Shown here: positions 19,357 to 62,377 of the stretch, piece by piece
How the letters are laid out: the number at the start of each line of letters is the position of its first letter
Numbering within the stretch: the stretch's first letter is position 1
DNA from: Octopus vulgaris
Lineage: Eukaryota
DNA length: 64,000 nt
Assembly: GCA_951406725.2 (NCBI GenBank)
Contig: OX597840.1
Location: 22,196,001 to 22,260,000 of the forward strand
Reading direction: 5' to 3'
Notes under the pieces: generated by a model
Told to the model about the DNA's origin: nothing
The model's database searches: none
What the model saw: the letters and a program-made list of their open reading frames with translations, nothing else
Program-made: the position numbers and the translations under genes

Positions 19357-22300
19357 ATATTATGTATATTATGTGTGTGTGTGTGTCTTTTTGTTTGTGT
19401 TTGTCCTCCACCTCTGCTTGACAACTAGTGTGGGTGTGTGTATGTCCCAATAACTTAGCGGTTTGGCAAAAAGACTGATAGAATAAATACCAGGCTTTAA
19501 AAGAATAAGTACTGGGGTCAATTTATTGAACTAAAAATTCTTCAAGGCGATGCTCCAGCATGGCCACAGTCTTCTGTCTGAAACAACTAAAAGTTAAGAG
19601 TTATATATCTGTTTTCAGGTTTTCTCCGCTAACTACTGGATTCTGAAGGGGATGCCAAAGTCTAAAGTTGTGGTTGGAATTCCTTTGTATGGCCACAGCT
19701 ACAAGCTGGTGTTTAAGGGTTCGCATGGGGTCCATGCTCTCAGTTATGGACGAGGTGAAAATGGCGGCTTTGTCACTTATCCACAAGTAAGGGTTGCCTT
19801 CTTGCTTTTTCTGAACATTCTCTCTCTCTCTCTCTCTCTGACAATAGATTAGCATTGAGATCATCACTCACCAACATTATCATCACCAGTCACATCATCA
19901 TCAATCACCATCATCATCAGTCACCATCATTGTCAGTCACCATAATCATCAGTCACCATCATCATCAGTTACCATTATCAGTCACGATCATCATCATCAG
20001 TCACCATCATCATCAGTCACCATCAGCATCAGTCACCATCATCATCATCAGTCACCATCATCATCAGTCACCATTATCAACAGTCACCATCATCATCATC
20101 ATTACCATTACTACTACCATTCCCACCATTTTCTTTGTTAGGATTCCTCACTTGACAATTTCTGCTCTTTGTTTAAGGACTTGATGAAGGTCAATGACCT
20201 AGTGGTTAGGGTGTTGCACTCACAACCTTACAGCTATGGTTTCAGTTCCTAGGTCAGGTGGTGTGTTGTGTTCTTGAACAAAACCCTTCGTTTCACATTG
20301 CTCCAGTCCACTCGGCTGTAAAACAAGTTCCAGTATTAACTGAGAAGTTAACCCTGTGAATGGTTGGAATCCCATCCAGGGGAGGATTATGATCTCAATC
20401 ACTTATATTCTATGGAAACCAGGTTCGACTCCAGCCTTATGAGCCCTAGAGCTCATGACTGAGCTAAACTAAGATTAAGGACTTTAAGAGGAGCATTGTT
20501 GTCACTGGCACCACCGCTATCATCACCATTATCATCACCATCACCACCACCACCATCACCATCATCATCATTGCAATCATCACCTCATTTTCATCATCAC
20601 TGCCATCATTATCATCACTATTACCTATTTCTTTACTACCCACAAGGGGCTAAACACAGAGAGGACAAACGGATTAAGTCGATTACATCAACCCCAGTGC
20701 GTAACTAGTACTTAATTTATCGACCCCAAAAGGATGAAAGGCAAAGTCGACCTCGACGGAATTTGAACTCAGAACGTAGCGGCTGACGAATACCGCTAAG
20801 CATTTCGCCCAGCTCACCGCCTATCATCACTATTACCATTACGTTCTGAGTTCAAATTCTGCCCGGGTTGACTTTGCTTTTCATCCTTTCAGGGTTGATA
20901 AATTAGGTACAAGTCAAGTACTAGGATGATGGTGGTGGTGGTGGTGGTTGCTACTGTTGCTGTTGTTGTTGTTGTTTAGCCCAGGTCAGCTTTGACTGTG
21001 CAGAGAGCTATGATCAAAGATGTTCTAGCCTTGACCATCCTTATCTTTTGTTAAGGCATAGTGTATCTTGGACTATATTACCTAATATTATCCTACTTGT
21101 TGTTGTTCTCAGATGATAGAGTTGGAATATCTTTGATCCTATGTGACCTGGGGTTAAAACAACACCCATCTCTGAATTTCTCTCCCCTCCACCTCTTTCT
21201 ACTCCACAGGTGTGCAAATACCTCCAATCAAACTTCACCAGGGTGTTCTATGAACAGTGTCAGGTCCCTTACATGTACAAGGATCACCTATGGATTAGTT
21301 ATGAAGATGAAGAGAGCCTTAGTATAAAGGTAACAGCAATTTTCTTGCTTATACAAGGGGCTGCTGAAAAGTTCCTAGCTTTAAGGGTGTTATAAACCCA
21401 AACTCAAATATCAAAGTTTAAAAGGTTTCACGTAGAGTCTCCCCAGAGTTTGAATTGCTTCTGAGTAATTCTCACATTCACTTATGAGTTCGTAAACGTC
21501 TTTATCATGAAAGGCCTAGCTGGAGGCCCAACCTTCTGAGTTCTTTTACATGACTAAGAAAAACTGAAGGACTCCTGCAATAAATGTGTGAATCTGAGAG
21601 GGGAATATATTGAATAAAATCATAATTAACTGATCCTCCTCTATTTTCTTTTATCGAAAGCCAGGAACTTTGCAGCCCCTCCCCTCATAAACGTGTGTGT
21701 GTGTTGATGTGAAAATTATTTGTGCTGGTCAGTATCTGCCAGGTTTCCACATAAATGGCTCAGATCTCATCGAGCATCCAATCAAATACCCCATGTACAC
21801 TTTTTCTTTCAGTTTAATTTAAATTCTTCTTGAGAGAGTCCAAGCCAGTCGCTAATAAAGTGACAAGACATTTTGAGTTGAAGGAGTCCCCAGTGTCTGT
21901 AAATATGGAGTGGAGTTGGTAAGTTAGTTGAACTGTCAATGCATACACTTGAGTGAGTGCATCTATTCAAATAAGAATCTCCGGTGAAGAATCTTTGGAA
22001 TGTCTTACAGATCTTCATTGTGCCACTAATAGATTGGATTTGGAGAATAGCTATCAGTTTCTGTTGCTCTTTCAATGAGACACTTAGAATTTCTAGATTT
22101 TTGAGTAAATCTGTAGGTACATTGCCTAATGCACCTGTGTTGAGAAGTACAAATGAAAATTTCTAGTCAATGTGCAGGAGCTAAAAGTTCCTTCTTCCTG
22201 GACTTTCGATCGGACATTCACATCCATTGGGCAACTGACCTCTACAACGGTGAGTTCCCTGTCCCACACAACAATATCAGATTTGTTATGTTTGCACTGA

Positions 22301-35381: not shown

Positions 35382-38300
35382 GTAAGTAATTTTTTTTAAC
35401 CCTTTTATTCCCCTACTTCCATTCGGAAACATTGTTTTCCCTCCAATTTATTTTAAAAATAATGAAGAATATTGTAAAAAGAGACCTCAGATGTGGTGTG
35501 CAAGAGAGAAGAATGCTCTGATATGGTCATGCATATAGACAAGGACAACTGTGTGAAGAAGTGCCAATCTCTAAATGTGGAGGGAACCTGTGGAAGAGGT
35601 CGACCCAGGAAGACATGGTACGAGGTGGTGAAGCATGATCTTTGAACGTTGGGCTTAATGGAGGTGATGACAAGTGACTGAGACCTTTGGTGCTCTGCTG
35701 TGCTTGAAAAGACTCGTTCAGTCAAGTGAAGTCATAGTCGTGGCTGTTGCTGGTGGCGTGTAAATGGCTCCTGTGCCAGTGGCATGTAAAAAAACACCCA
35801 TGACACTTTTGGAGTAGTTGGTGTTAGGAAGGACAACCATGCCTAATCAGACTGGAACCTGCTTCAGACGTTAAATGATGACGACAACGATGACAAACTT
35901 TGTTGTTATTAATCATTACTAATCTGATGTTTGAAACATAAAAAAGAAGCCCTTCGGTCATAAATGACTAGGGGATTGCACCTGGAAAGTTACCCTCCAA
36001 AGCGCAAGTCCAGGCAAGGTTGATTGATTAGTTCTGATGTTGTGATTGTTTATTTTTTAGAACGACATTGTGGGTCAGGTATGAGAGAATGGATCTGGCC
36101 AGTTTGAACTTAAAACAGGTAGGATACTTGAGCCAGATGAGGATGGGTGTTCTTCTTGTCCAAAGATGAAGAGACAAAATGGCCACCTCCATGCAAAGCT
36201 GAGGCTGCAACTGCCAGAACCACCCAACACCCGTCATTTTCGTTTGTTCTTCATCACTGCAGGGCTAGAAAACCAGCTCCCTATCTGCTTTGATTGTCAT
36301 GAGCCACATCTTTGGCTGACCACCTCTCTGCCTATCCCAACCCAGAGGAAGGATCTGGTGCTGTCGCCTTCCGGATGAGTTCGTCATGGGGAGCACCACA
36401 AGTGACAGAAGGCTGCAGGGACCAGCAAGCTGTAGGTTTTCCATTAGAGAGACCTTCTCCTCGGGGAATTGCCTTACAGGGCTGGAGAGCTTCGCTACCC
36501 TGGAGTTGCTGGAAGAGTATCAAAGGGGTCAGTAAACCATGTGAGGGACTCTACTTCTTGATTTGCTGTCGAGGTTGACTCCCCTCCCACAAGTGACTCT
36601 CTGCCAGACAAAATAGAATAAGAACAACAAGAGGAGACACATGGCATAGAGAGTCATTGAAGAGGTCACAAATTGTGTAGTGAAAGAACTTTGACAAAGA
36701 AACTAAAATAATAATTATAAAACTGAATTGGGGACCAAATATACAGTGTGTGTGTTTAATTGGCAAAATATGACCATCCCAACTATAATGGTTTCAAATT
36801 TTGCCAAAAGGACAGCAATTTTGAGGGAGGGGATGAGTCGATTACATCGACCCCAAGTGTTTAACTGATACTTATTTTATCAACCCCAAAAGGATGAAAG
36901 GTAAAGTTGACCCAGGCAGAATTTGAAACCCTCCCCAAGTATAATGATATCTGTTGCAACACACAATTTTACAAATTACTTATTATTTTCTTGTATTTTT
37001 ATTTCTTCTGTTTTCAGCAAAAGCTGTTTCCTTATCAGGCAACACCTGTGCCATTCCTCTCTACACCTGCCTCCCTTCGGATGTACAGTTTATGAAGGTT
37101 AGTAGTGTCGATACACATTCATATAATTGGTGCAAGCCTGGCTGTGTGGTTAAGAAGTTTGCTTCCTGACCAAGTAGTTTCAGGTTCAATCCCATTATGA
37201 TACCTTGCTTTAAAAGAGGGATGGAGAGAGAGAAAGAAATCATAATCTAAACTGGAAGATTAGACAGAGACAGGGTAAAGACCGTTACCCTCTGAGGCAC
37301 AAGTCTTGGCAAGATTGTCTATGGAAGACCAGCAGTCGCCCATGCATACCAGCCTCCCCTCCTCATGCCACTGATGTTATCCAAGGGAAAGGCAATGGCC
37401 AATTCAGCTTGGCACCAGTGACATTGCAACTCATTTCTCCAGATGAGTGAACTGGAGCAACATGAAATGAAGTGTCTTGCTCAAGAACACAACACACGGC
37501 CCAGTTCGGGAATCAAACTTACTACCTCATGATTGTGAGTCCGACATTTTAACCACTGAGCTGTGGAATAGATTAGAATGAGATATGAAAATTTAAAAAA
37601 TTGAGGAGTAGAGTTGAAGGTATGAGAATTAGTGAAGTGGAATAACTTTGATCTCGGTAAATACTTCTAATGTTATTACCTCCGCCAAAGAAGGAGGTTG
37701 TTTTCATCGGCGTTGGTTTGTCTGTCCGTCTGTGTGCAAATTAACTCAAAAAGTTGTGAACAGTATTTGATGAAACTTACAGGAAAAATTGGTAATGACA
37801 CAAGGAACAAATGATGAAATTTTGGTAGGGATCCAAGAATTTTTATGGATTGTTGAAGGATTTTTCATTTGTTATATTTACTTTACATGAAGTATTACAA
37901 TGTTACGTTCTTTGATTATCTCCCTTGAAAACACGTTCATCGTTTCCATGTAACTTATGGTGGCGTTGCTGTTTCCAAAGTTTTTTTTTCGTTTCTCTAT
38001 TAGTAATTTTACTCGTATCTATCTTAAAATGAGCTTAACGGAGGTCTGTGCTCTCCGAGTGCTTTTCTAGTTTTCTTACTGTTTTGTTATTTTTCAGTGT
38101 GTGGCACTCTACCCAAGGCCAGAATATCCAAACCTCTTAGCTATCGGACAAGTCATTGGCAAAATTCTTCTGACCAAGTAAGTGTGGAGAAAAGGCAACT
38201 GTTTTATCATTTCTTTCATTGAATGTGTAATGTCAGCGTGCATCACTCTCTCGTCTCTCCCTGCCTCTTCTGTTGCTATGGCAATAAACTCTGACTCACT

Positions 38301-40832
38301 TACACACATCTGCTAAGGCTTCTGTTTCGTTTTTAGTTAAAAGCACACAAACATAGGTTATAGCAGACAAGAATCGGCTGCCAAAGGCATTGGAATTTCA
38401 TGTCATGTGATTTCACCCTACTGGAAATCATCAGTGGGAGGCGTCCAGTCAAATCTTGCTGCTACAATATATAGAATATCAGCATCTTGTCAGACAGATG
38501 TTGCAAATAGCCAACAGGCTAATTAAAAATTAATTATTAGCAACAGAAGCTGTATTAATAGCAAAATGTAATCTTAATATCCAACTTAAGATGGATTGCC
38601 TTGTTAGAACACCAAATACTATTATTAGCCTTGAGATCCTCTCATTTTGCCACTTGATGCATAAAAGCACACACATACAAAGGGGTGCTGAAAAGTTGCT
38701 GATTTTAAGGGTACCGTAAAAGGCCTGGTTGAAGGCCCAACCTTCCGAGTTCTTTTACAGGGCTTAGAAAAACTGAAAGACAACTGGAATAAATGTGTGA
38801 ATCTGAGAGGGGAATATGTTGGATAAAATCTTAATTAACTGATCCTCCAGTTTTTTTTTCTTTTACCCAAAGCTTGAAACTTTTCAACACCCCTCATAGA
38901 CCATAGCAGATGATTCTCATCTGCTACAATCTATGTGTGAGCCTTTATGTATCAAGTGCCTTATAAGAGAAGATCTCTCAAAGCTAATAATGTAATATCT
39001 TAAGTTGGATATAAAGATGACCTTTTGATCTAAATTATAAATTTCCATGTAAATTTATGTTCTAAATACCAGCTTAATATCAGCAAAATTCTTTGAGTAA
39101 CTTCTTTGTTATTTTCACAATTAATTGAAACATAAACTATGTATTTCAACTGAAATATAGTCACAAAATAATTAAGAAAGAAAAAAACATTCAATCAAGG
39201 ACCAAAATAAAGTCAAGTTTAACCTTTTTGATGCTGCCCTATCGGAAATCACTCCTAGTTCTATGATGCAAATTTTATGAGTTAAACTGATCTAAATTAA
39301 AAACTGCCATCAAAATTTTATGCTAATTTATGTTCCAAATGCCAGATTAATTAATGACAAAGTTATTTTACTAATTGTAAAATCTCAAGAAGAGATCAGA
39401 ATAGTAACGATACCAAACAGTAGAGCGCCAGTCGCCACATCAGAGTGGCTGTTGAATGTTACTACTAGTTTAACCCCAGGCAGATTTTCCACCAGCTGGT
39501 TATCAGTGCAACACTCTGCACTCTTTAGCTTATTGCAAATCAGTGACTGATGGCCACTTGGTTTACAATATATTGTTAGCGGTAGTGGACTCTGGCTATC
39601 ACTCTGGCAAGAAGGTGGTTACGACTGAGGATGAGCCAAAGATCTCGAAACTGAGTCAGTCTTGTGATCCTGTTAGCTGCTAGAGGGTGGTAGGGATTCC
39701 CTCCCCCCTGCTGACAGTATATTGTATATAAAGGTTGCAGGGTGTCACATTGATAACCAGCTGGTGGAAAATCTGCCTGGGGTTAAACCTGTTGTAACAT
39801 TCAGCAGCCACTTTGATGTGGTGACTGACTTTACTGTTGCTTTACTAAATTCTTCATTAATTTCAAAATTAATTGAAGGAAAATTAATGTCATCATCATC
39901 ATCAGTCATCAAGATCCCACACCTGATGCAACCAGTCTTTGGGGTGCCACTCTAGGCACATTTGTAGTCAGCCATCACCATAGCTCTCTATTCTCTGTTG
40001 TCCAAGTAAGATTTTCTCGATTTTCCTCACTTGCCCACCTCCAGCTGTGCCCTGAAGAATGGCTTTAGCCCAGGGAGTTGTAGCAAGATACATGACCATA
40101 CCTGGCAAGCTTTTGTCTTTTTTTATCTGCGCTAGGAGTGGTTCCTGTCTGCCAGTATATGTTGACTTGCTGCCTGACAAAGCTGTTTGTTTTGTGCTCT
40201 GTGTAGCAGCCATTGTCTTTTCAGTGACAGTTGTAAGGGTCCATAGAGAAGGATCAAAGTTGCCAGAGTCTGGTACACTCTGAGTCTTGTTGGAAAACAA
40301 GGAGAAGCAGTGAAGCAGAACCACAGGAGCTTAGACATAAGACTGGAAAAAGTATCAGGAGCATACGAATGGGGATCAATTCAGAAAAGAGCAAAATCCT
40401 AGTCAATAGTAACAACCAAAAGACAGTATAGTGCTGAGCAGAGACAGACTTGATGAAGTGGAGAGCTTCAAGTACCTGGGATCCACTTTCATCAAGGACA
40501 GCATTTCTTGAAGGGAGATCACAACAAAAGTAGTGTGTTTCAACTGAAATATGATACCAAAAGGGTTAAACAACAACATTAGTATCCATAGTAGTTTACT
40601 AACTGCCCATTTTACCATTTACAAATTCTGTTTAATTTTGATTCATTTTCTTTTAACAGTCTTGGAGATGTGCGGAACTGTGATTTGGCAGGCAAAGAAT
40701 TTGGTAGGTTTCATTCTGTTGATCTTTGCTTTACACTTCAGTTATTTTTATTTTTTTAGCATAATAAATGCTGAGATGTGCGAAGGGATGTAAACACACA
40801 AACACCAGTTGTCAAGTGGTGGTGGGAACAAA

Positions 40833-40869
<37 letters not shown>

Positions 40870-43800
40870 ACATAGACAGTTTCCGTCTACCAAATTCACT
40901 CACAAGGCTTTGGTCAGCTCAAGGCTATAGTAGAAGACACTTGTCCAAGGTGCTATGCAGTAGGACTGAACCCGGAACCATATGGTTGGTAAGCAAGCTA
41001 CTTACTACACAGCCACACCTACACCTGATTGCCTTTATTACAAATGACAGTGAACTACTCCCAAATAGAATCTTGCTCCTGAAATAGGTTTGCAATGGCA
41101 CAGTTTGGGTCTTGGAATCAAGTACAAAGGAAGACCTTTTTTCTGTTATCTTTTACTTGTTTTAGTCATTAGACTGTGGCCATGCTGGGACACTGCCCTG
41201 AAGAATTTTACTAAAATAAATCAACCCCAGTACTTTGGTGAAGCCTGATACTTATTCTGTGCATCCCTTTTTTTGCCAAACTGCTAATTTACAGGGAAGC
41301 AAACACACCAACACCAGTTATCAAGCAATGGGGTGCAGGGGAGGCAAAATTCTTAGCCACACAGCTTTACCTGTACCTCTCAGTCTGTCTACTTATCTAT
41401 CTGTTTATACATTCTACATCTATTTTTCACAATGAACTACAACAGATCCATTTAACTGTGATATTTCATAAGCTAGAAATGACAGCAAGACTTTAGCAAA
41501 AATACCTGCAAAGATGGAGACAGAAAAAACATAGAGGGAAGCAGAAAGAAAGATATGTAAATATACAATGTATCAATACTCAATGTATGCTAGACCTGCT
41601 GCCAGAAATAGCAGCCAAATCTCCCTGAATCTCACATCTCTCTGTCTGTCTATTTTTCTATCTACTTATCTATCTGTATATATGTCTATTTGTCTATCTA
41701 TCTACTTATCTTTCTATTTGTCTATCTGTCTCTTTGTCTGTCTGTCTATAGATAGACAGACAGACAGACAGATATATATAAAACATATTTTTCTCAAATT
41801 CAGCTTCATGAACCATAACTGTACTTCCCTTTGCCATTTCTTCTAATAACCATTTCTAAATGTCTGCTTCTTCCATTGTTTTGATTACAGCTCAGAGACA
41901 CACAAGACAGTGTAATTATTTGGCATGGAACCCAATTGAATCAAATTTGGTAAGTTTCCAATAAAATCATTTTGATTTCATATTTTCCCTTTATTTTTTT
42001 TTTCTGTATCTGTAACCAAAATCAGTAGTTAAGTCAATGAATGAGTCTCTACCAGGTTGTTAAACCTGCCAGAAATTGCAGCCAAACTGCCCTCAAAGCA
42101 CATCCTATTGTAGAGCACAATTAAAAGAAGTCACACTGAAAAATGTAGTCCCTGATATTCCAGAAAGACATGATCGCAAGGCTGTTCTTCTGTTTACAAA
42201 ATTACAAGTCAAGAAACACTTAAGACAAAGAGAAAGTAGTAAATCATTCATAAAAATGCATCACCCACACACACACACATTGACTTTTATGAGGAAAAGA
42301 CAAACAACGACTTAGAAGTTTCACCTTCAATCAAACTGACGCCCTTTATGTTAATGAGCCAAATACCCTGACCCCCAAGCCATGGGCCTTCATGCTCCCT
42401 ACTCACAGAACTTTCTATCTATTCACTAAAGTTAATATAGCTAAGACAATGAGTGTTCCAGTTGATCCAATGAAGAGAACAGCCTGCTCATGAAATTAAC
42501 ATGTAAGTGGCTGAGTACTCCACAGACATGTTCTTAGGGAGATTTAGCATAACACAGAATGTGACATGGTTGACCTTTTTGACTTACATCTGAGTGGATT
42601 GTAGCAACATGAAATAAAGTGTCTGGCTCAAGGACACAACACACCACTATGATTTGAACTCATGACCTTACAATTATAAGCCATACATCCTAACCACTAA
42701 GCCATGCACCTTCATGCTACCCACTCACATAACTTTCTATCTCTTCACTATAGTTGATTAAAAAACTTGAAATACTGTCTGTCCAGGACCCCTATGTCTC
42801 AGTCTACCTTTTTGGAATCATGAGGATTCCAGGATTGAAAATCTGTTCTTCATTCGGTTCTTGAACATCTAGCTTTGGGACCTGATTTAAAAGCATTTGG
42901 GTTGCTATTTCTAGCAGGTAAATCTTGGTTGGCATTTGTCAGATGACATCAGAGATGAGGGGGAGAGATAAATAACATTCACTTCGTTAATTTTACATCG
43001 TGATAAGAACTTTGGGACAAATTGGCCAAAAGTTGGGATTGAACTTGCAACTGGAACAATAGAATGATTTCATCACAGAATTAATTCCCATCCATCCTTA
43101 ACCTCTGATCAAACATCCCCTGAGGCCTATAAGTCATTATAGATGTGTTATAGTCATGCTTCTTAGCTCTGTTTTGTTTTGCCCAATTAACCCTCCACAG
43201 GAGCTGGCTTAAAAGTCTGCACAGAGCACGGCTTTTAAGCTGGTCATTGATGTAGCTACTCTACCTGTTCACTGTTTAACATTATTACATTGTCTTCTGT
43301 TGTCTTCTATTCCAGCTGGCGGCTGGACTTGAGAAAAACCGACACGATGGTTGCATTGCGATCTGGGACGTGAACAGCAAGTCTGTAGAATCGGCAATGC
43401 CTCTTGAAAGAAAACATTATGCTCCTAATGAAGTGACGAAACCATATTTAGATATTGGTAAGATTAACATTTCTGTGTGAATTTGATGGTGGTGGGGATG
43501 GTTGTGTCATTCTTTTATTTGTTTCACTCATTTGACTGCGGCCATGCTGGAGCACTGCCTTTAGTCAAACAAATCAACCCCAGGTCTTATTCTTTGTAAG
43601 CCTAGTACTTATCATATCGGTCTCTTTTGCCGAACTGCTAAGTTACGGGGGTGTAAACACACCAGCATCAGTTGTCAAGCGAATGTGGGGGGACAGACAC
43701 AGACACACAAACATATATATGTGTGTATATATATGTATGTATATATATGTATGTGTGTATATATATATATATATATATGTGACAGGCTTCTTTCAGTTTC

Positions 43801-56400: not shown

Positions 56401-59400
56401 CCAGAGGTTAGGTGTGTGGGGCTCCAGTGGATATTTATCCCCACTGGAAAGGATCAATGCTAAGAAAGAACCTGCAAGATAGGTGATTTGCACTTCCCTC
56501 CAACATTGATGTCATACACCTTGATTTCAGCAAGGCATTTGACAGGGTGGACCACAAAATCCTGCTGAAGAAACTGTCCAACATTGGAGTCTGTAGAAAG
56601 CTGCTGCAGTGGATAAAGTGTTTCCTGATGAACAGGACCCAACATGTGGTTGAGGGAATCCAATGAAGCTCAGCCAAAGTCAGTAGTGGTGTCCCACAAG
56701 GTACAATGTTGGGCCCACTACTCTTCATTAGCTACATCAGTGACATAGTCGGATTTGCTGTTGTCCAATGGGTGGAAAAGAGAATACTCTGAAACTACCA
56801 TATGCTCTTCCCTTGGGTGACTCCCTAGTGTCATCCAACAACACTAGAGACCTTGGAGTAATTGTTGATAACAATCTGAGCTGGAGTTCACACGTAAACA
56901 GCAAGTTTGACTTGGCCCACAAGATGTGCTCCTGGATTCTGAGAACTTTCTAGTCTAGAGATGCTCACACCATCATCCTTCTCTACTCTACTTTTGCCCA
57001 ACCCCACCTTGAATACTGTTGCCCACTGTGGTCTCCCTGCATGAAGCAAAGCATTATGAAAGTGGAAGCACTCCAGAAGTCAATAACAATGCCACTGTGA
57101 GTGCCACATCATTTGTGTGGTATGAAAAATATTCCATCAATATTGCACAACTGGTGTTAACATCAGTTTTAAAATTCACCCAAGACTTGGCCCCTGTGCA
57201 AATCGAACTCAAGACACATGGCAACATTACAACACAACTATTTTATCTCAAGCGGCTCTCATTAATATTATATCAAAAGGGAAACAGATCCCATAAACAT
57301 TATTTACATTTGACAGATATTTGTCCTCATCTTGTTTGTTGTTAACACAACGTTTCGGCTGATATAGCCTCCAGCCTTCATCAGGTGTAGATCCCATAAA
57401 ATTCAAAAGTTCTTTGGACAAATTTCTCAAAAAAATCCCGGACCAACCTCCTACACCCAGATATGTCTCCAACAATAATAACTCTTTGCTAGAGGGGCCC
57501 ATGGTGTCCCATATATGACTAAAAGTCTTCACCAGGTGGTGCTATTAAATCAGACATGGCCTGGGACTAGACTGGCCGAAACCTAAGTTATTTAAGTTAC
57601 TTTGATTTAGAGTTTTTCAGTGAAGGTTTTAAAAACTATTTTAACTTCCTTCAGTTTATTTTCAGTTTCCAATATCTGCTGTGTGTTGCGCACAAATCTT
57701 TATTAATTACCAAATTTGTTTGTTTGTGATTAATAATGTTTATTTGTAAGAAACTGGTCCATCGTTTCCTTAACTGTTGTTTATCCCAGTGTGTAAAGAT
57801 AGAATTAGAGATAAGATGAGAAAAACTGAGCAGAATTGCTATTATGGAGTTGAGAGTGTTCTGTTAAACTTGAAGAGTAAAGAAACACGAGAAAAATGGC
57901 AGGGACTTGAAGATAACGAAACATGTGCCAAATATGTTTATCGCAGCGAGGAGAGGTAAGAGGTGCTTTTTATTGGGGTTTTTATTTTCCTTAATAATTT
58001 TGTCAGTAAATGTGTCAGTGGCACAGTAGATGATGATGATAGTGGCCTATCATCATCATCATCATCCTTTAATATCCATTTTCCATGCTGGCATGAGTTG
58101 GATGGTTTGACCAGAGCTGGCAAGCAGAAGAGCTGCACCAGGTTCCAGTCTGATTTGGTTTGGTGTCTACAGCTGGATGCCTTTCCTAATGCCAACCACT
58201 TTACAGTTTGTGATGGGTGCATTTAATGTGGCACCAACACAGGACACATGCAGGCCAATCCCTTTCAGCAGAGGGTGGGGTGGTCTTAACATTTCTACTG
58301 TACAGGACAGGTCTTCTTGAGCACAGCAAAGTATCAGACGTCTCGGTCCTTTGTCATCTTATCTGAAAGGTCCAGCGTCCTCAGGTCGTCCTTCAGCACT
58401 TTGTCCCATGTCTCTCTGGATCTCCCTCTTCCACATGTTTCATCCACTTTGACTTCTTCGTGGAGCTGTCAGCATCCCTCTGCATCACATGGCCAAACCA
58501 GTGCAGTCATCTCTCTTCTACACTGTATCTAATTCCTCTTATTCCTAACTCCTCTCACACACGTACCCTTACACATCCAGTGGGGCACACTAGGCTCATT
58601 TCTCTCTAGTCTTCAGAAATGTTACTGTGGCCCAGTGGACAGGGTTATGCCTGTTGACCAGGCATTGCTGAGTGGTTATGATGATTGTTTTGTGATCATG
58701 AAGCCCCAGGTTCAATCCCACTACATGGCATCTTGCTATGAGTCTGAGAGTTTGTTGTTGCAGACTTTTTTTCTACATCCAGAGGCATTTCCTGTCCCCA
58801 ACTGTCACTTGATTCTGGGCAAGGTAACATTTTGTTTTAACCGGAGGTGTTTTCATTTATTCTCAGTCCCCCCCCCTCTCTACCTGAATTTAGAGCAATC
58901 CATATATTTTTGTCTTATTTACTATGTTCTTACAGGTACCATGTTCTGCAGATGTGTGGCTGGGACAATCTACAAAATCCAACTGGAATAAGTGAGTTCA
59001 GGAAAAGGTGAGTTACTTCCATTGGCTGTGTTATTTTGGTGAGAGAGAACTATGGATAATTGCATATATATGACTAGATGACTGTATATATGTATGTGTA
59101 TATATCTGTATGTGACAATTATTCGGTAGCCATGATAAAACTGAGTTTCGGACATTGGGGCAGAAACCCACGCCAGCATCTCTTCAGTTATCTGACCATC
59201 GAAAAAAAGATCTATGAAAATGACCGTTAAAACAAAAGAAAATTACTGTGTGATTGACCGTTATTAAGACAAAAGAACTATTAGAATGACCGCTAAGTAA
59301 GAGGAGGGAGTAAAAATGCTCATTGTAAGTGCACATGTCCGTACATACACATGCGTGTCTGTACACCCACGTACATGCACCTACATGTATATACACATCC

Positions 59401-62377
59401 ACCCTCACTAGAAACACACACAAATGCTCACCCACACATTCGTCAAACAATATATACATACACGATCATGCGCACAAAAAAATGTTCATTCACACATCTA
59501 TATACGCACATGTACAAGAAAAAACGGCAAAAAAAGGCAAAATACGGGAAAATGTGTAAAAAAGTGTAAAAAATAAGCAATAAGAGTAAGACACATCTAT
59601 ATACGCACATACTCGCATGCACACACACACGTCTAATATATACACATACCTACACACATCTATATATACACACACATACGCACAAATAAAATTCATACAC
59701 GTATATATATGCACATACACAAAAAAAAACAGGGCTAAAGGCAAAATACAGAAAAATGTGTAAAAAAAAAGGTGTAAGATGGGAACCAAAATCTTCAAAG
59801 TCACCAGAAGAGGAAAAGAAGAAAACAAACAAGAGGAGAGAATGCCATCAATTCTTCTCTGCAAGAATTGGTCTACAGAGTGATCAACAGCGTCACCATA
59901 AAGGAAGCGTTTGACAAAGAAAAATCTAAATTCTTGAATACAAGATAAAGCTGCCATCACCAACAACAATTAGAAAATATTATGGTGCGTTTGGTGGTTA
60001 CATGAAGTTTGCGATGAACCACCGATGGCACATGTGGGGATTACGTTAATGTTTCTATATTTATTGTGAATTCGTTTGTGTCTTGTATATTCTTCTTTCT
60101 GTTTGTAGACTCCAGAAACAAGGGGAATACGAGAGGGCAGCGGCCATAGCTTTATTTAACCTCCACATAACATTAGCTTTGGCTATTCTCAACGATGAAC
60201 GATCCCCTTCTTCAGATGAAGGTAAATTAACGTCATTTCTCTGTGTGTGTGGTGAAAGTGCATGGCTCAGTGGTTAGAGTGTCAGGCTAACGTGAGGTTG
60301 TGAGTTCGATTCCCAGACCAGTCTGTGTGTTGTGTTCTTGAGCAAGACACTTCATTTCATGTTGCTCCAGTTCACTCAGCTGTAGACATAAGTTGAGACA
60401 TCATTAGTGCCAAGCTGTATTGGCCTCTTTGCCTTTTCCTTGGATAACATTGATGGCATGTCCTCAGTCAACTGAGCACCCACTACACTCTTGGAGTGGT
60501 TGGCGTTAGGAAGGGCATCTATCTGTAGAAACTCTGCCAGATCACTTCCTAACGCCAACCACTCCAAGAGTGTAGTGGGTGCTTTTACGTGCCACTGGCA
60601 TGAGGGCCAGTCAAGCGCTACTGACGACGGCCACGCTCAAATGGTGTTTTTTATGTGGCACCTGCACAGGAGTCAGTGTGGGGACTGAGGGGAAAATAAG
60701 AAGGGCAACTAAACCCTTCAAGGCAATGCCCCAGCATGGCCGCATTCAAGTAACTGGAACAAAAGATAAAAGATATTAATTATTATCTTTCATATCCTGT
60801 TCCCCCTGCTGCTTTTTTTTTCTTTTGAAATTCATTCATTTATGTTTTATTTCTCAGAATCTGACCGCAGTTTGGCGTTGGTGGGCATGGCACTGGCTGG
60901 TTTTACAGAGAACAAAGATGCCCTCTGGCAGAAAATGTGCCGCAATTTCAGACGACAGTTAACAAATCCTTACCTAAGAGCTATGTTTTGGTTCCTTTCC
61001 TCATCAGAAACTGATAACTACAAAGAAATATTGGTGAGTTTTGTTGTTGTTGTTCATGTTTTTATACTTGTAGTATTCCTGCAATTATGTTTTCTTGTTG
61101 TGTACATGCTTTGTGTGTGTTTCTTTTTCACTTCTTTCAGTCATTAGACTGAACTCCCTCTTGCAGAGACAAGGGTCAGTTGTAGTGAGCAGTAGCAGTG
61201 ATATACAAACAACAGGATGGTCATGGCTGGAACTCATAAGTCATCTTGATCAGAGTTGACTCAGCACTAAATAACAATAAAATATGATATAACCAAACCT
61301 CTGTGAGGGGTTGGTGTTAGGAAGGGCATCCAGCTGTGAAAACCCTGCCAAAACAGATAGCAAAGCCTGGTGCAGTCTTCTGCCTGACGGCCAGCTCCTA
61401 TAGGACCGTCCAACCCATGCCAGCATGGAAAGCAGACATCAAATGCGGATAATAAGGATTATGAAATCTTGTGCATGCATTCATGAATGCATACAAGGCT
61501 TCTTTTCCGTTTCTACTGACCAAATCCATTCACAAGGCTATGGTCATCTTGGGCCTAGAGTAGAAGACACTTGTACAAGGTGCCATGCAATGGGACTCAA
61601 TCAAGAGCCATGTGGTTGAGAAACAGTCTTCTTACTACTCAACCCTGCTCAATTCTGTAAAAGACTTTTGGAAAGATTTTGTGTGCTGTGTGTTCTTGAT
61701 TTTGGTCTCAGTCACAATCAATAATATTATAATGACCTTATGACATTTTCTCTTTCCAGTTTGAAGAAGGAATGGCTGTTGGCGACCGGGTGGCATTTGC
61801 CTGCACTTTTCTTCCAGATGATTCTGTGAGTACCAGCTTGTCGTTTTTTATACATACATCATTCACATACACTCTCTAACTTTTGCATACACTCATATTT
61901 TCTCTCTCTCACACACATTCAGTCTTACACACTTATTGTATCATACACGCACCCTTTGTTCTACTCCTAGCTTCTCTCCCTCCCTCTTTTCCACTCTCCT
62001 CCCTTCTCTCCATCCAACTCCCACACAATGTCTTTCTTCTTCCTTTCTCTTATATCCCTCCATTCTCTTCTTTAGTTCTCTCTCCATCTTTCTTCTCTTT
62101 CCTTCCTCTCTTCACACAGAGCACAGGAATAACATTCACCTCCTCCCTTCTCACCTCCCAGACCACACTTGACCACAGAAGACATCAAAAAACCTACACA
62201 CTTCCTCCCACTTTGCCCCCCCACCACCACCACCACACCCACACACTAACCAAAACACTAATCACTTCCATTGGTCATTTTGCCATTTCTGGATCTCATT
62301 TCAGTTGATAGAATACATCCAGTCTTTATCCAATCAGTTGGTGCTGGCTGGAAATTTGGACGGCATCTTGCTCACTG
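35258..62377 (+). CDS. MIOS: GATOR2 complex protein MIOS (WD40 beta-propeller + alpha-solenoid), coding exons 1-21, 3'-incomplete
   Basis: 21 phase-consistent exons (1936 nt) colinear with recalled metazoan MIOS: RQCNYLAWNP, LAAGLEK, SFAWH, GEYERAAAIALFNL, MALAGFTE...NPYLRAMF, DRVAFAC, AGNLDGILLTG. The C-terminal Zn/RING region lies beyond the window. Confidence 0.95.
37018..37097 (+). CDS. MIOS: MIOS exon 2 (AKAVSLSG...DVQFMK)
   Basis: ttttcag| acceptor, |gttagt donor; phase consistent. Confidence 0.85.
37673..38070 (+). mobile_element. Helentron/HINE-like non-autonomous element
   Basis: ttattacctccgccaa start, subterminal inverted copy ttaacggaggt, gtctgtcc microsatellite, terminal ctag followed by a T-run. 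Confidence 0.65.
38098..38177 (+). CDS. MIOS: MIOS exon 3 (CVALYPRPEYPNLLAIGQVIGKILLT)
   Basis: Canonical splice sites; matches recalled CVAW...LLAVGQ. Confidence 0.9.
38571..39018. mobile_element. Palindromic MITE interrupted by a mariner-like insertion (38678-38896, TA duplication)
   Basis: atatccaacttaagat...gcataaaagcacacacata mirrored by tatgtgtgagcctttatgtatcaagtg...atcttaagttggatat. Confidence 0.7.
39375..39840 (+). mobile_element. Non-autonomous element with ~100-bp inverted arms enclosing a hammerhead (Penelope-like/retrozyme-like)
   Basis: Arms 39416-39520 and 39736-39838; direct repeat tttactaa at 39367-39374 and 39841-39848. Confidence 0.65.
39617..39669 (+). ncRNA. Type I hammerhead ribozyme (GUC cleavage triplet)
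   Basis: ggttacga-CTGAGGA-t-gag(ccaaagat)ctc-GAAActga-g-tcaGTC-ttgtgatc; stems I, II and III can all pair. Confidence 0.7.
39888..40545 (-). mobile_element. RTE-clade LINE fragment with inverted 5' segment
   Basis: Minus strand LRVYQTLATLILLYG...KAILQGT plus (GAT)n tail; plus strand 40295-40545 EVESFKYLGS. Confidence 0.7.
40660..40703 (+). CDS. MIOS: MIOS exon 4 (LGDVRNCDLAGKEF)
   Basis: aacag| acceptor, G|gtaggt donor; matches recalled DLIGKEF. Confidence 0.88.
41891..41949 (+). CDS. MIOS: MIOS exon 5 (AQRHTRQCNYLAWNPIESNL)
   Basis: Canonical splice sites; conserved motif. Confidence 0.92.
43316..43457 (+). CDS. MIOS: MIOS exon 6 (LAAGLEKNRHDGCIAIWD...KPYLDI)
   Basis: Canonical splice sites; WD repeat. 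Confidence 0.92.
44687..44785 (+). CDS. MIOS: MIOS exon 7 (GISEFSTSFCWQP...VYDIR)
   Basis: ctctag| acceptor, G|gtgagt donor. Confidence 0.92.
44927..45930 (-). mobile_element. Degenerate maT/mariner-like (DD37D-type) transposon
   Basis: Frameshifted IMVFG...GDVMPPF...YIKCLEEVVLPW, WHQDTAPC, WPLNSPDSNSLGY, RRFQSCLEAVVETNGDFIE. Confidence 0.8.
46705..46799 (+). CDS. MIOS: MIOS exon 8 (NTKALYGISIDPLFPNRVVSFTE)
   Basis: Canonical splice sites; matches recalled NTKAVQGVTVDP. Confidence 0.92.
47797..48033 (+). mobile_element. tRNA-derived SINE, family A (copies e.g. 3881-4090, 20628-20820 minus, 25784-26000 minus, 52683-53120 minus)
   Basis: ggcggcgagctg...gagttcaaattc...gaggtcaactttgcctttcatcctttcggggtcgataaa body repeated throughout the window. 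Confidence 0.85.
48167..48208 (+). CDS. MIOS: MIOS exon 9 (NQVFIWNLRNLDDP)
   Basis: tttcag| acceptor; U12-type donor |gtatcctttt. Confidence 0.9.
48209..50393 (+). other. U12-type (minor spliceosome) GT-AG intron, MIOS intron 9
   Basis: 5'SS GTATCCTTTT; branch-like TTCTTTAAC at 50374-50382 close to the AG. Confidence 0.85.
50394..50449 (+). CDS. MIOS: MIOS exon 10 (EFTISELKPVQKVSWCPTR)
   Basis: Matches recalled KPLTKVAWCPTR; CG|gtgagt donor. Confidence 0.92.
51205..51500 (-). mobile_element. tRNA-derived SINE (third family)
   Basis: Reverse strand tggcccagtggttagggcag...ggtttcgattccc A/B boxes; related 3' parts at 15900-16000 and 48500-48610. Confidence 0.7.
51759..51832 (+). CDS. MIOS: MIOS exon 11 (VGFLSILCKDSSTIQHCDIIHTSD)
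   Basis: Canonical splice sites; phase consistent. Confidence 0.9.
52363..52407 (+). CDS. MIOS: MIOS exon 12 (GPDDLEPAYIQRYTP)
   Basis: Canonical splice sites; matches recalled DETEPTIIER. Confidence 0.88.
52414..52548. repeat. (CAT/CAC)n trinucleotide repeat
   Basis: Intronic; explains the poly-His ORF. Confidence 0.95.
53320..53815. repeat. CT-rich low-complexity tract
   Basis: (CT)n-dominated sequence directly upstream of exon 13. Confidence 0.9.
53827..53945 (+). CDS. MIOS: MIOS exon 13 (CDKSTCLSSFAWH...NQIAL)
   Basis: cttcag| acceptor, |gtaagt donor; SFAWH motif. Confidence 0.92.
54276..54410 (+). CDS. MIOS: MIOS exon 14 (DWSNEF...EDIGMIMKNRAMLEYGME)
   Basis: Matches recalled DIATKMRLRALSRYG. 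Confidence 0.92.
55930..56005 (+). CDS. MIOS: MIOS exon 15 (IDKPWKS...LSRLWTWMA)
   Basis: tttttag| acceptor; U12-type donor A|gtatcctttg. Confidence 0.9.
56490..57600 (+). mobile_element. Degenerate CR1/Crack-like LINE RT fragments
   Basis: LDFSKAFDRVDH, SGVPQGTMLGPLLF, RDLGVIVD, PHLEYCCPLWSP, FKSSLDKFLKKIPDQP, with stops and frameshifts. Confidence 0.88.
57345..57388 (-). ncRNA. Minimal type I hammerhead ribozyme (Penelope-type, palindromic stem III)
   Basis: Minus strand acac-CTGATGA-a-ggctg(gaggctatat)cagcc-GAAAC-GTT-gtgt. Confidence 0.72.
57790..57955 (+). CDS. MIOS: MIOS exon 16 (MCKDRIRD...YYGVESVL...WQGL...RSEER)
   Basis: cccag| acceptor, AG|gtaaga donor; phases consistent. Confidence 0.9.
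58936..59007 (+). CDS. MIOS: MIOS exon 17 (YHVLQMCGWD...SEFRK)
   Basis: Matches recalled LQLCGW; AG|gtgagt donor gives the phase needed by exon 18. Confidence 0.9.
59134..59192 (-). ncRNA. Type I hammerhead ribozyme motif
   Basis: Minus strand gataa-CTGAAGA-(gatgctgg...ccaatgtcc hairpin)-GAAAC-tca-GTT-ttatc; perfect 5-bp stem I. Confidence 0.6.
60109..60221 (+). CDS. MIOS: MIOS exon 18 (LQKQGEYERAAAIALFNL...)
   Basis: Strongly conserved motif; canonical splice sites. Confidence 0.95.
60858..61033 (+). CDS. MIOS: MIOS exon 19 (SLALVGMALAGFTE...NPYLRAMFWFL...YKEIL)
   Basis: Strongly conserved; canonical splice sites. Confidence 0.95.
61760..61825 (+). CDS. MIOS: MIOS exon 20 (FEEGMAVGDRVAFACTFLPDDS)
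   Basis: DRVAFAC motif; canonical splice sites. Confidence 0.95.
62305..62377 (+). CDS. MIOS: MIOS exon 21 (LIEYIQSL...AGNLDGILLTG)
   Basis: AGNLxGILLTG motif; G|gtaagt donor. Confidence 0.95.

Follow-up and report, generated by a model that had tools for sequence, protein, structure and literature searches.

A MIOS intron and its insert

The window analysed here, a 64,000-nucleotide stretch of the Octopus vulgaris genome, carries MIOS on its forward strand, with a PF21719 match at 60050-61144 and weak PF21720 matches at 43316 and 44689. One MIOS intron harbors a 466-bp insert with a hammerhead ribozyme motif. An earlier note on this DNA had placed the motif on the sense strand of MIOS intron 3; the gene and the sense orientation hold, and the rank of three lacks support, the first MIOS coding exon having been looked for and not found. 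The locus is organized as follows.

38178-40659, forward strand: MIOS intron with the element, between exons at 38098-38177 and about 40660-40703, inferred from splice signals and resemblance
39282-39877, strand not assigned: abundant host repeat cut by the insert, in pieces of about 39282-39374 and 39841-39877
39367-39374, forward strand: left copy of the target-site duplication, TTTACTAA, supported by the empty sites of host-repeat paralogs; the final 4 bases can be aligned to the long 3' end of the element as well
39375-39527, reverse strand: inverted, 5'-truncated piece of a 359-bp unit, unit positions 255 to about 47, with the long 3' end; 90% identical to the family majority and without the hammerhead
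39375-39415, reverse strand: "tail", the part of the inverted piece beyond the short 3' end, made of the first bases of the next unit; the right arm holds no partner for it
39521-39838, forward strand: 5'-truncated piece of the same unit, unit positions 48 to 3, with the short 3' end; 88% identical to the family majority
39617-39669, forward strand: type I hammerhead with an intact core and a predicted cut after C39661; stem II down to 3 bp, stem I changed by CpG-type mutations
39729-39838, forward strand: right hairpin arm, the 3' end of the forward piece, pairing with 39416-39527
39841-39848, forward strand: right copy of the target-site duplication, 8 bp

The insert spans 39375-39840 and is bounded on both sides by TTTACTAA. 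All five host-repeat copies that align up to the site, two in the window and three at other loci, carry a single TTTACTAA-like word, which reads TTTAGTAA at one of them, and contigs of host-repeat paralogs likewise run straight through the empty site. Since these uninterrupted paralogs hold the word only once, the 8-bp target duplication is genuine, and the original description of a 466-bp insertion with direct repeats splitting another repeat was correct. Contigs assembled from sequencing runs guessed to be RNA yielded one 220-nt piece across the left junction and a few diverged pieces of the family; such contigs cannot show transcript ends or levels.

Two back-to-back pieces of the 359-bp unit, each truncated at its 5' end, make up the insert. 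On the unit alignment the inverted piece runs from 39527 down to 39371, and it overlaps the forward piece by 7 nt at the junction. The left arm repeats the 3' end of the unit and adds about 45 further bases of the next one. The arms reported earlier as reverse complements do pair, imperfectly, with 39416-39527 and 39729-39838 complementary in 96 of 112 columns (86%); the left arm then continues unpaired as family sequence through 39375-39415. The predicted fold of the whole insert has an energy of -254 kcal/mol (z -21.6). Ten of 13 CpGs have been lost in this copy and three are left, and only one of 13 non-CpG variant sites is common to both arms.

Other features were noted in the neighborhood. 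Nested inverted repeats, with arms of 39, 27, 17, 16 and 19 nt around position 38915, occupy 38554-39035 in the same intron; they contain a high-copy repeat and resemble a folded-back or MITE-like element. Upstream of MIOS, a forward-strand frame at 21147-21392 has a weak match to glycosyl hydrolase 18 (chitinase-like, E 6e-5).

The 359-bp family and its hammerhead

A search of the 2.8-Gb genome with the insert returned 1081 candidates on many chromosomes, 40 of which were scored, the best at 84% identity. The family majority unit is 359 bp long and forms seamless head-to-tail junctions in natural tandems (loci L010, L012 and L027). It is predicted to fold into a long rod around the hammerhead, with a circular fold of -147 kcal/mol obtained without a shuffle control. 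No Penelope protein match was found within the unit, which is dispersed in the genome; the insert is indeed a non-coding mobile element, as had been proposed. We fetched 115 family loci and dropped 32 as the same place repeated or segmental duplicates, leaving 83 loci with 142 pieces that were chosen by similarity or pattern, so that counts from them are not genome-wide rates. The longest piece measures 630 nt, and no tandem array beyond 1.75 units occurs among the 83 loci; three of the 142 pieces span two hammerhead positions. Pieces longer than 200 nt are 70-91% identical to the family majority (median 86%), and nearest-neighbor identity among 49 pieces has a median of 83% and a maximum of 90%. 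Judged by this divergence, the copies are old. At L027, an inverted piece (2166-2358) lies 360 nt from the main copy and matches it at 98% identity, suggesting a later local duplication or conversion.

The motif at 39617-39669 comprises eight possible stem I pairs, three of them G-U, followed by CUGAGGA, an extra U, a 3-bp stem II, GAAA and a near-palindromic stem III. GUC lies at 39659-39661, with cleavage predicted 3' of C39661. Every core position of the type I order CUGANGA / GAAA / NUH is present, and the complete hammerhead claimed at this position is confirmed at the level of its bases. An Rfam scan of 38500-40700 gave no match at E<=1. A loose core pattern matched three times in the window against 0.78 expected, which is weak evidence when taken alone, and a tight 25-base hammerhead pattern matched 25 times in the genome against none in a reversed control. 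The window holds a second hammerhead-core-like pattern match on the reverse strand at 57352-57384, ending in CGAAAC.

In the family motif, stem I has 6 bp and stem II 4 bp, an internal loop is present and stem III is palindromic, a layout of the dimer type (PMC4209133). The MIOS-intron copy has four CpG-type changes in stem I, where the third G-U pair arose by a private change, and it has lost one pair of stem II. The 8-bp, G-U-rich stem I remarked upon earlier can thus be drawn with all its pairs; it is a private decay of the 6-bp family stem and not a feature of the family. The earlier note had named a core not conserved among copies as a ground for refuting its reading, and conservation did not emerge: all core bases are kept in 9 of 25 similarity-picked copies, the MIOS-intron copy included, and core identity of 90% against a background of 85% is biased by the intact query.

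Covariation, which the note had proposed to check, gave a divided answer. Within the family it did not rise above shuffles (40 rows, 293 of 500). Across sister subfamilies, double changes affected three pairs of stem I and one of stem III, with 32 double-sided cells and 0 of 500 shuffles for both paired cells and score; the alignment comprised 15 sister copies (67-79% identity) and eight family rows, picked on core and stem II and related to one another. One stem I column is missing from five rows of this alignment, which captures few independent events. This covariation of stems I and III suggests that the ancestral ribozyme is likely real and that source elements likely kept the fold. The sister hammerhead subfamilies (L160-L173 and L179, for example G000:C9:9798133 and C16:57017336) are 67-79% identical to the unit and carry different stem I and stem III palindromes; several of their loci display the same inverted layout. 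A separate family at L174-L177, unrelated to the 359-bp unit and often TA-flanked, bears short hammerhead-like motifs with a minimal stem III. The L174 motif was set aside, as it sits in a TA-flanked insert of its own, on the opposite strand.

Folding models that leave out Mg2+ and tertiary contacts place the active secondary structure of the MIOS-intron hammerhead 6.8 kcal/mol above the ensemble, whichever of four contexts is used (53 to 478 nt, with or without arms); the cause is pairing between the core and the 3' strand of stem III. The predicted share of the active fold is about 2e-5. A crude dimer estimate is also unfavorable, and there is no second hammerhead in cis, the inverted arm holding none. 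Having a single hammerhead, whose stem II is weakened and which faces a competing helix, the MIOS-intron copy would be expected to cut poorly, likely leaving the pre-mRNA mostly uncut. We considered whether the pairing of core GACUGA with the stem III 3' strand could be a designed off-switch. The same pairing exists in the family majority (5.2 kcal/mol), but sister subfamilies with another stem III cannot form it, and the idea was discarded.

Ends and inversions across the copies

The 3' ends of the pieces fall at two places. Fifty-three of the 142 lie at a short site (unit positions 345-14), 50 at a long site (38-66) and 39 elsewhere, each site covering 8% of the unit; hence 103 of 142 ends map to two fixed sites about 55 nt apart. 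The 5' starts are scattered, with 10 at the short site, 13 at the long site and 119 elsewhere. A microsatellite adjoins 61 of the 103 fixed ends, compared with 202 of 2000 control positions.

Back-to-back inversion was seen at 37 of the 83 loci; the other 46 have no adjacent inversion. In the 18 inversions with both outer ends at fixed sites, 16 pair a short with a long end, two are long+long and none is short+short (binomial p 6.6e-4 vs 50:50); at least one outer end lies at neither fixed site in the remaining 19. Arms range from 37 to 491 nt (n=37). The inversions enclose one hammerhead position in 23 cases, two in five and none in nine, two of these nine with a truncated one. Neither the "ribozyme-in-a-hairpin design" proposed for the MIOS-intron insert nor a conserved architecture among genomic copies is supported by these numbers.

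The arms of one insertion are related to each other. Arm identity has a median of 83% within the same insertion (n=22) and 79% between different insertions (420 non-independent pairs), and shared non-CpG variants amount to 114 of 589 within insertions and 901 of 14028 between them. Because arms are more alike within than between insertions, the pattern is as expected if both came from one source, to which subfamily structure or gene conversion could add. Among 17 inverted or paired insertions checked, the MIOS-intron copy alone has a clear junction-adjacent duplication outside microsatellites; the other 16 are not clear, and most of them sit in microsatellites.

Later local DNA rearrangement, or two independent landings back to back, might also generate such inversions, and some loci are complex, among them L027 with its nearly identical inverted piece away from the main copy. 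We regard this as very unlikely for the insert studied here, where one target duplication frames both pieces, and the prevalence of short+long pairing is unexpected from random rearrangement. A different origin is brought to mind by MITEs, which are short and non-coding and have inverted arms and a flanking duplication, as does the MIOS-intron insert. The arms would then be a MITE into which the hammerhead piece had inserted. That scenario can scarcely be credited: the right arm and the hammerhead form one stretch in uninverted copies and in the tandems L010, L012 and L027, the outer ends differ by the tail, and arm length is not fixed. Unlike those of MITEs, arms in the 359-bp family are asymmetric, vary widely in length and belong to a tandem unit that also occurs uninverted, and more than half of the loci have none. 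The expectation that the arms are not an unrelated MITE is therefore upheld. The arms are a by-product of insertion.

The earlier note further proposed that, if the ribozyme cleaves, the duplex would hold the two halves of cut MIOS pre-mRNA together and could make the element tolerable in an essential gene. Taken further, this would mean an active ribozyme kept in the hairpin by design or selection, with splicing able to proceed. The core is intact and sense to MIOS, and the physics is plausible: the cut halves would be bound at about -125 kcal/mol with the arms, compared with -14 without them, according to the folding models. We nevertheless consider this reading quite unlikely. The architecture is variable and often omits the hammerhead, the arms have drifted to 86%, stems I and II have suffered CpG-type and other damage, about a third of the sampled copies keep the core anyway, and the predicted share of active fold is minute with no second hammerhead in cis. 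The variable layout, the drifted arms and a core kept by about one copy in three give no hint of selection for a cage. Since the arms leave the predicted hammerhead fold unaltered, little or no predicted cleavage would explain tolerance in MIOS more simply than a duplex.

The position of the ribozyme cut in the copies bears on the template. The cut site is read through in 85 of 142 pieces, and 14 pieces exceed 429 nt. The cut site (unit position 189) shows no excess of 5' ends, three of 142 falling within 183-195, although L008 begins exactly there. From these three observations we infer that the template was uncut, religated or multimeric RNA. With 5' ends unenriched at the cut, hammerhead processing of the template is not shown by these copies.

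Retrozyme affinity and a Penelope-like footprint

Metazoan non-LTR retrozymes are non-coding 170-400 nt units with a type I hammerhead, measuring 350-390 bp in mussel (Cervera and de la Pena 2020, PMC7229834), and Penelope-like elements have been proposed as their partners (PMC7229834; Li, Clavereau and Pollet 2026, bioRxiv 10.64898/2026.07.22.740005). The octopus family resembles them in its 359-bp unit within this size range, its type I hammerhead, its common head-to-tail junctions and its extensive self-pairing. The target duplication longer than 4 bp (8 bp in the MIOS-intron copy) and the co-existence with Penelope-like elements are further likenesses, as is the intronic location, which is frequent among described retrozymes (42-44% of copies in Xenopus). 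Of nine retrozyme genomic dimers assayed, eight did not cleave (bioRxiv 10.64898/2026.07.22.740005). Unlike the described retrozymes, the 359-bp family reaches at most 1.75 units, lacks young copies and is known here from sequence alone, and back-to-back short+long insertions do not figure in the passages of the retrozyme descriptions considered. Our literature search found no description of this octopus hammerhead element or of short+long retrozyme inversions, and subscription papers and supplements may hold one; the main text of PMC13282606 contains neither "ribozyme" nor "retrozyme", and its supplements may list the family under another name. Most likely, the family belongs to the non-LTR retrozymes, as a new though old member, and its insertions bear a Penelope-type footprint.

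That footprint is recognized by comparison. Penelope-like insertions, as described by Craig et al. (2021, PMC8557442), are partial tandems with truncated 5' ends and tend to fall in microsatellites. The unit is often framed by an inverted copy, likewise 5'-truncated, and the tail of 30-40 bp is often confined to one of the ends. The octopus copies share the 5' truncation, partial tandems, inverted 5'-truncated copy, one-end tail and microsatellite bias; they differ in having no ORF and no partner found, and a tail of about 45-58 nt as compared with 30-40. In vitro, a Penelope-like protein extended both strands, with two adjacent internal start sites defining the tail, and used mostly uncut RNA (Frangieh et al. 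2024, PMC11167929). Penelope-like elements commonly give rise to truncated single hammerheads (Cervera and de la Pena 2014, PMC4209133). Like ours, the hammerheads in the pLTRs of these elements carry an additional unpaired base ahead of stem II, and their palindromic stem III is suited to dimer formation (PMC4209133); theirs are minimal in helix sizes, whereas the hammerhead of the 359-bp family is canonical.

The genome contains intact elements with reverse transcriptase (RT) and GIY-YIG domains (148 matches among the 150 of 6136 candidates scored, with an ORF of about 780 aa), and inverted ends occur in four of 11 Penelope-like elements fetched. A search for a coding partner with shared termini, as the earlier note had suggested, returned none in the sampled loci, even though the insertion footprint fits the proposed Penelope link. 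No coding element shared unit sequence among 30 GIY-YIG loci, no unit likeness was seen in 12 longer stretches, 11 of which had a Penelope-like ORF, and no partner was present among 20 loci chosen by stem II variants, 15 of which proved to be sister-subfamily copies (67-79%) and five unrelated. At the 83 family loci, no insert holds an RT+GIY-YIG ORF and no Penelope protein match reaches into the unit; such matches in L108, L006 and L145 stand apart from it. In L108, an inverted Penelope-like fragment (577-1315 and 1349-1829), framed by a 49-nt inverted repeat, lies by a family copy. It was dismissed as a joined partner, as it ends in its own microsatellite and is not linked to the unit.

Two Penelope-like families were encountered along the way. 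A young one (L116, L127 and L119; G000:C16:20835000-20843000 and others) has many intact 781-aa RT+GIY-YIG frames that are 98% alike, and its 3' region contains short tandem subrepeats and no standard hammerhead detectable by regular expression. A second (L117:1321-4483, L064, L088 and L174) bears a compact hammerhead-like motif in its terminal repeat; in the L117 element the inverted arms are identical over 766 bp, and a tail lying in (TA)n is present on one side.

These comparisons raise the possibility that the unit is the pLTR of a coding Penelope-like element and that its copies are heavily truncated ends of that element and not a separate non-coding one. The same footprint would be expected (PMC8557442), truncated single hammerheads commonly come from such elements (PMC4209133), and 150 of the 6136 GIY-YIG candidates were scored. 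Several observations make this improbable. The longest pieces, up to 1.75 units, consist purely of head-to-tail unit; the tail is made of the first part of the following unit and brings in no other sequence; Penelope protein matches run into the unit at 0 of 83 loci; and stems I and II of the hammerhead have the canonical lengths of 6 and 4 bp in place of the minimal form.

Taken as a non-LTR retrozyme, the insert is best read, with a probability of roughly 80%, as two back-to-back 5'-truncated pieces of the 359-bp unit, likely written by a Penelope-like enzyme into a staggered break, since decayed and predicted to be a poor cutter. The enzyme is likely the Penelope-like one by analogy of its footprint. 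Under this model, a source locus would produce tandem RNA, and its hammerheads, cutting as dimers, would release unit-length RNA in linear or circular form. The two DNA strands would be nicked 8 nt apart by a Penelope-like endonuclease/reverse transcriptase, with one cDNA beginning at the short site and the second about 55 nt beyond it, at the long site; both would stop early and join head to head. The hairpin would be the overlap of the two cDNAs. A more specific version of this model, which we put forward tentatively and as somewhat less than an even bet, is that a Penelope-type enzyme primes both sides of the break on uncut multimeric or circular ribozyme RNA, each strand at one fixed site, and copies through the cut site.

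By itself, the MIOS-intron copy is ordinary and likely inert, and the family is of modest use; younger families would be a better test than the decayed 359-bp one. In the passages considered, the animal-retrozyme papers rest the proposal of a Penelope partner on co-occurrence and pLTR kinship. The short+long end pairing, the cut-site read-through and the arm kinship lead to testable predictions about the priming mechanism. If the priming model is true, two start sites in vitro are predicted to within a few bases, and the copies would provide direct footprint evidence for a retrozyme route whose case has until now been built on co-occurrence and sequence kinship.
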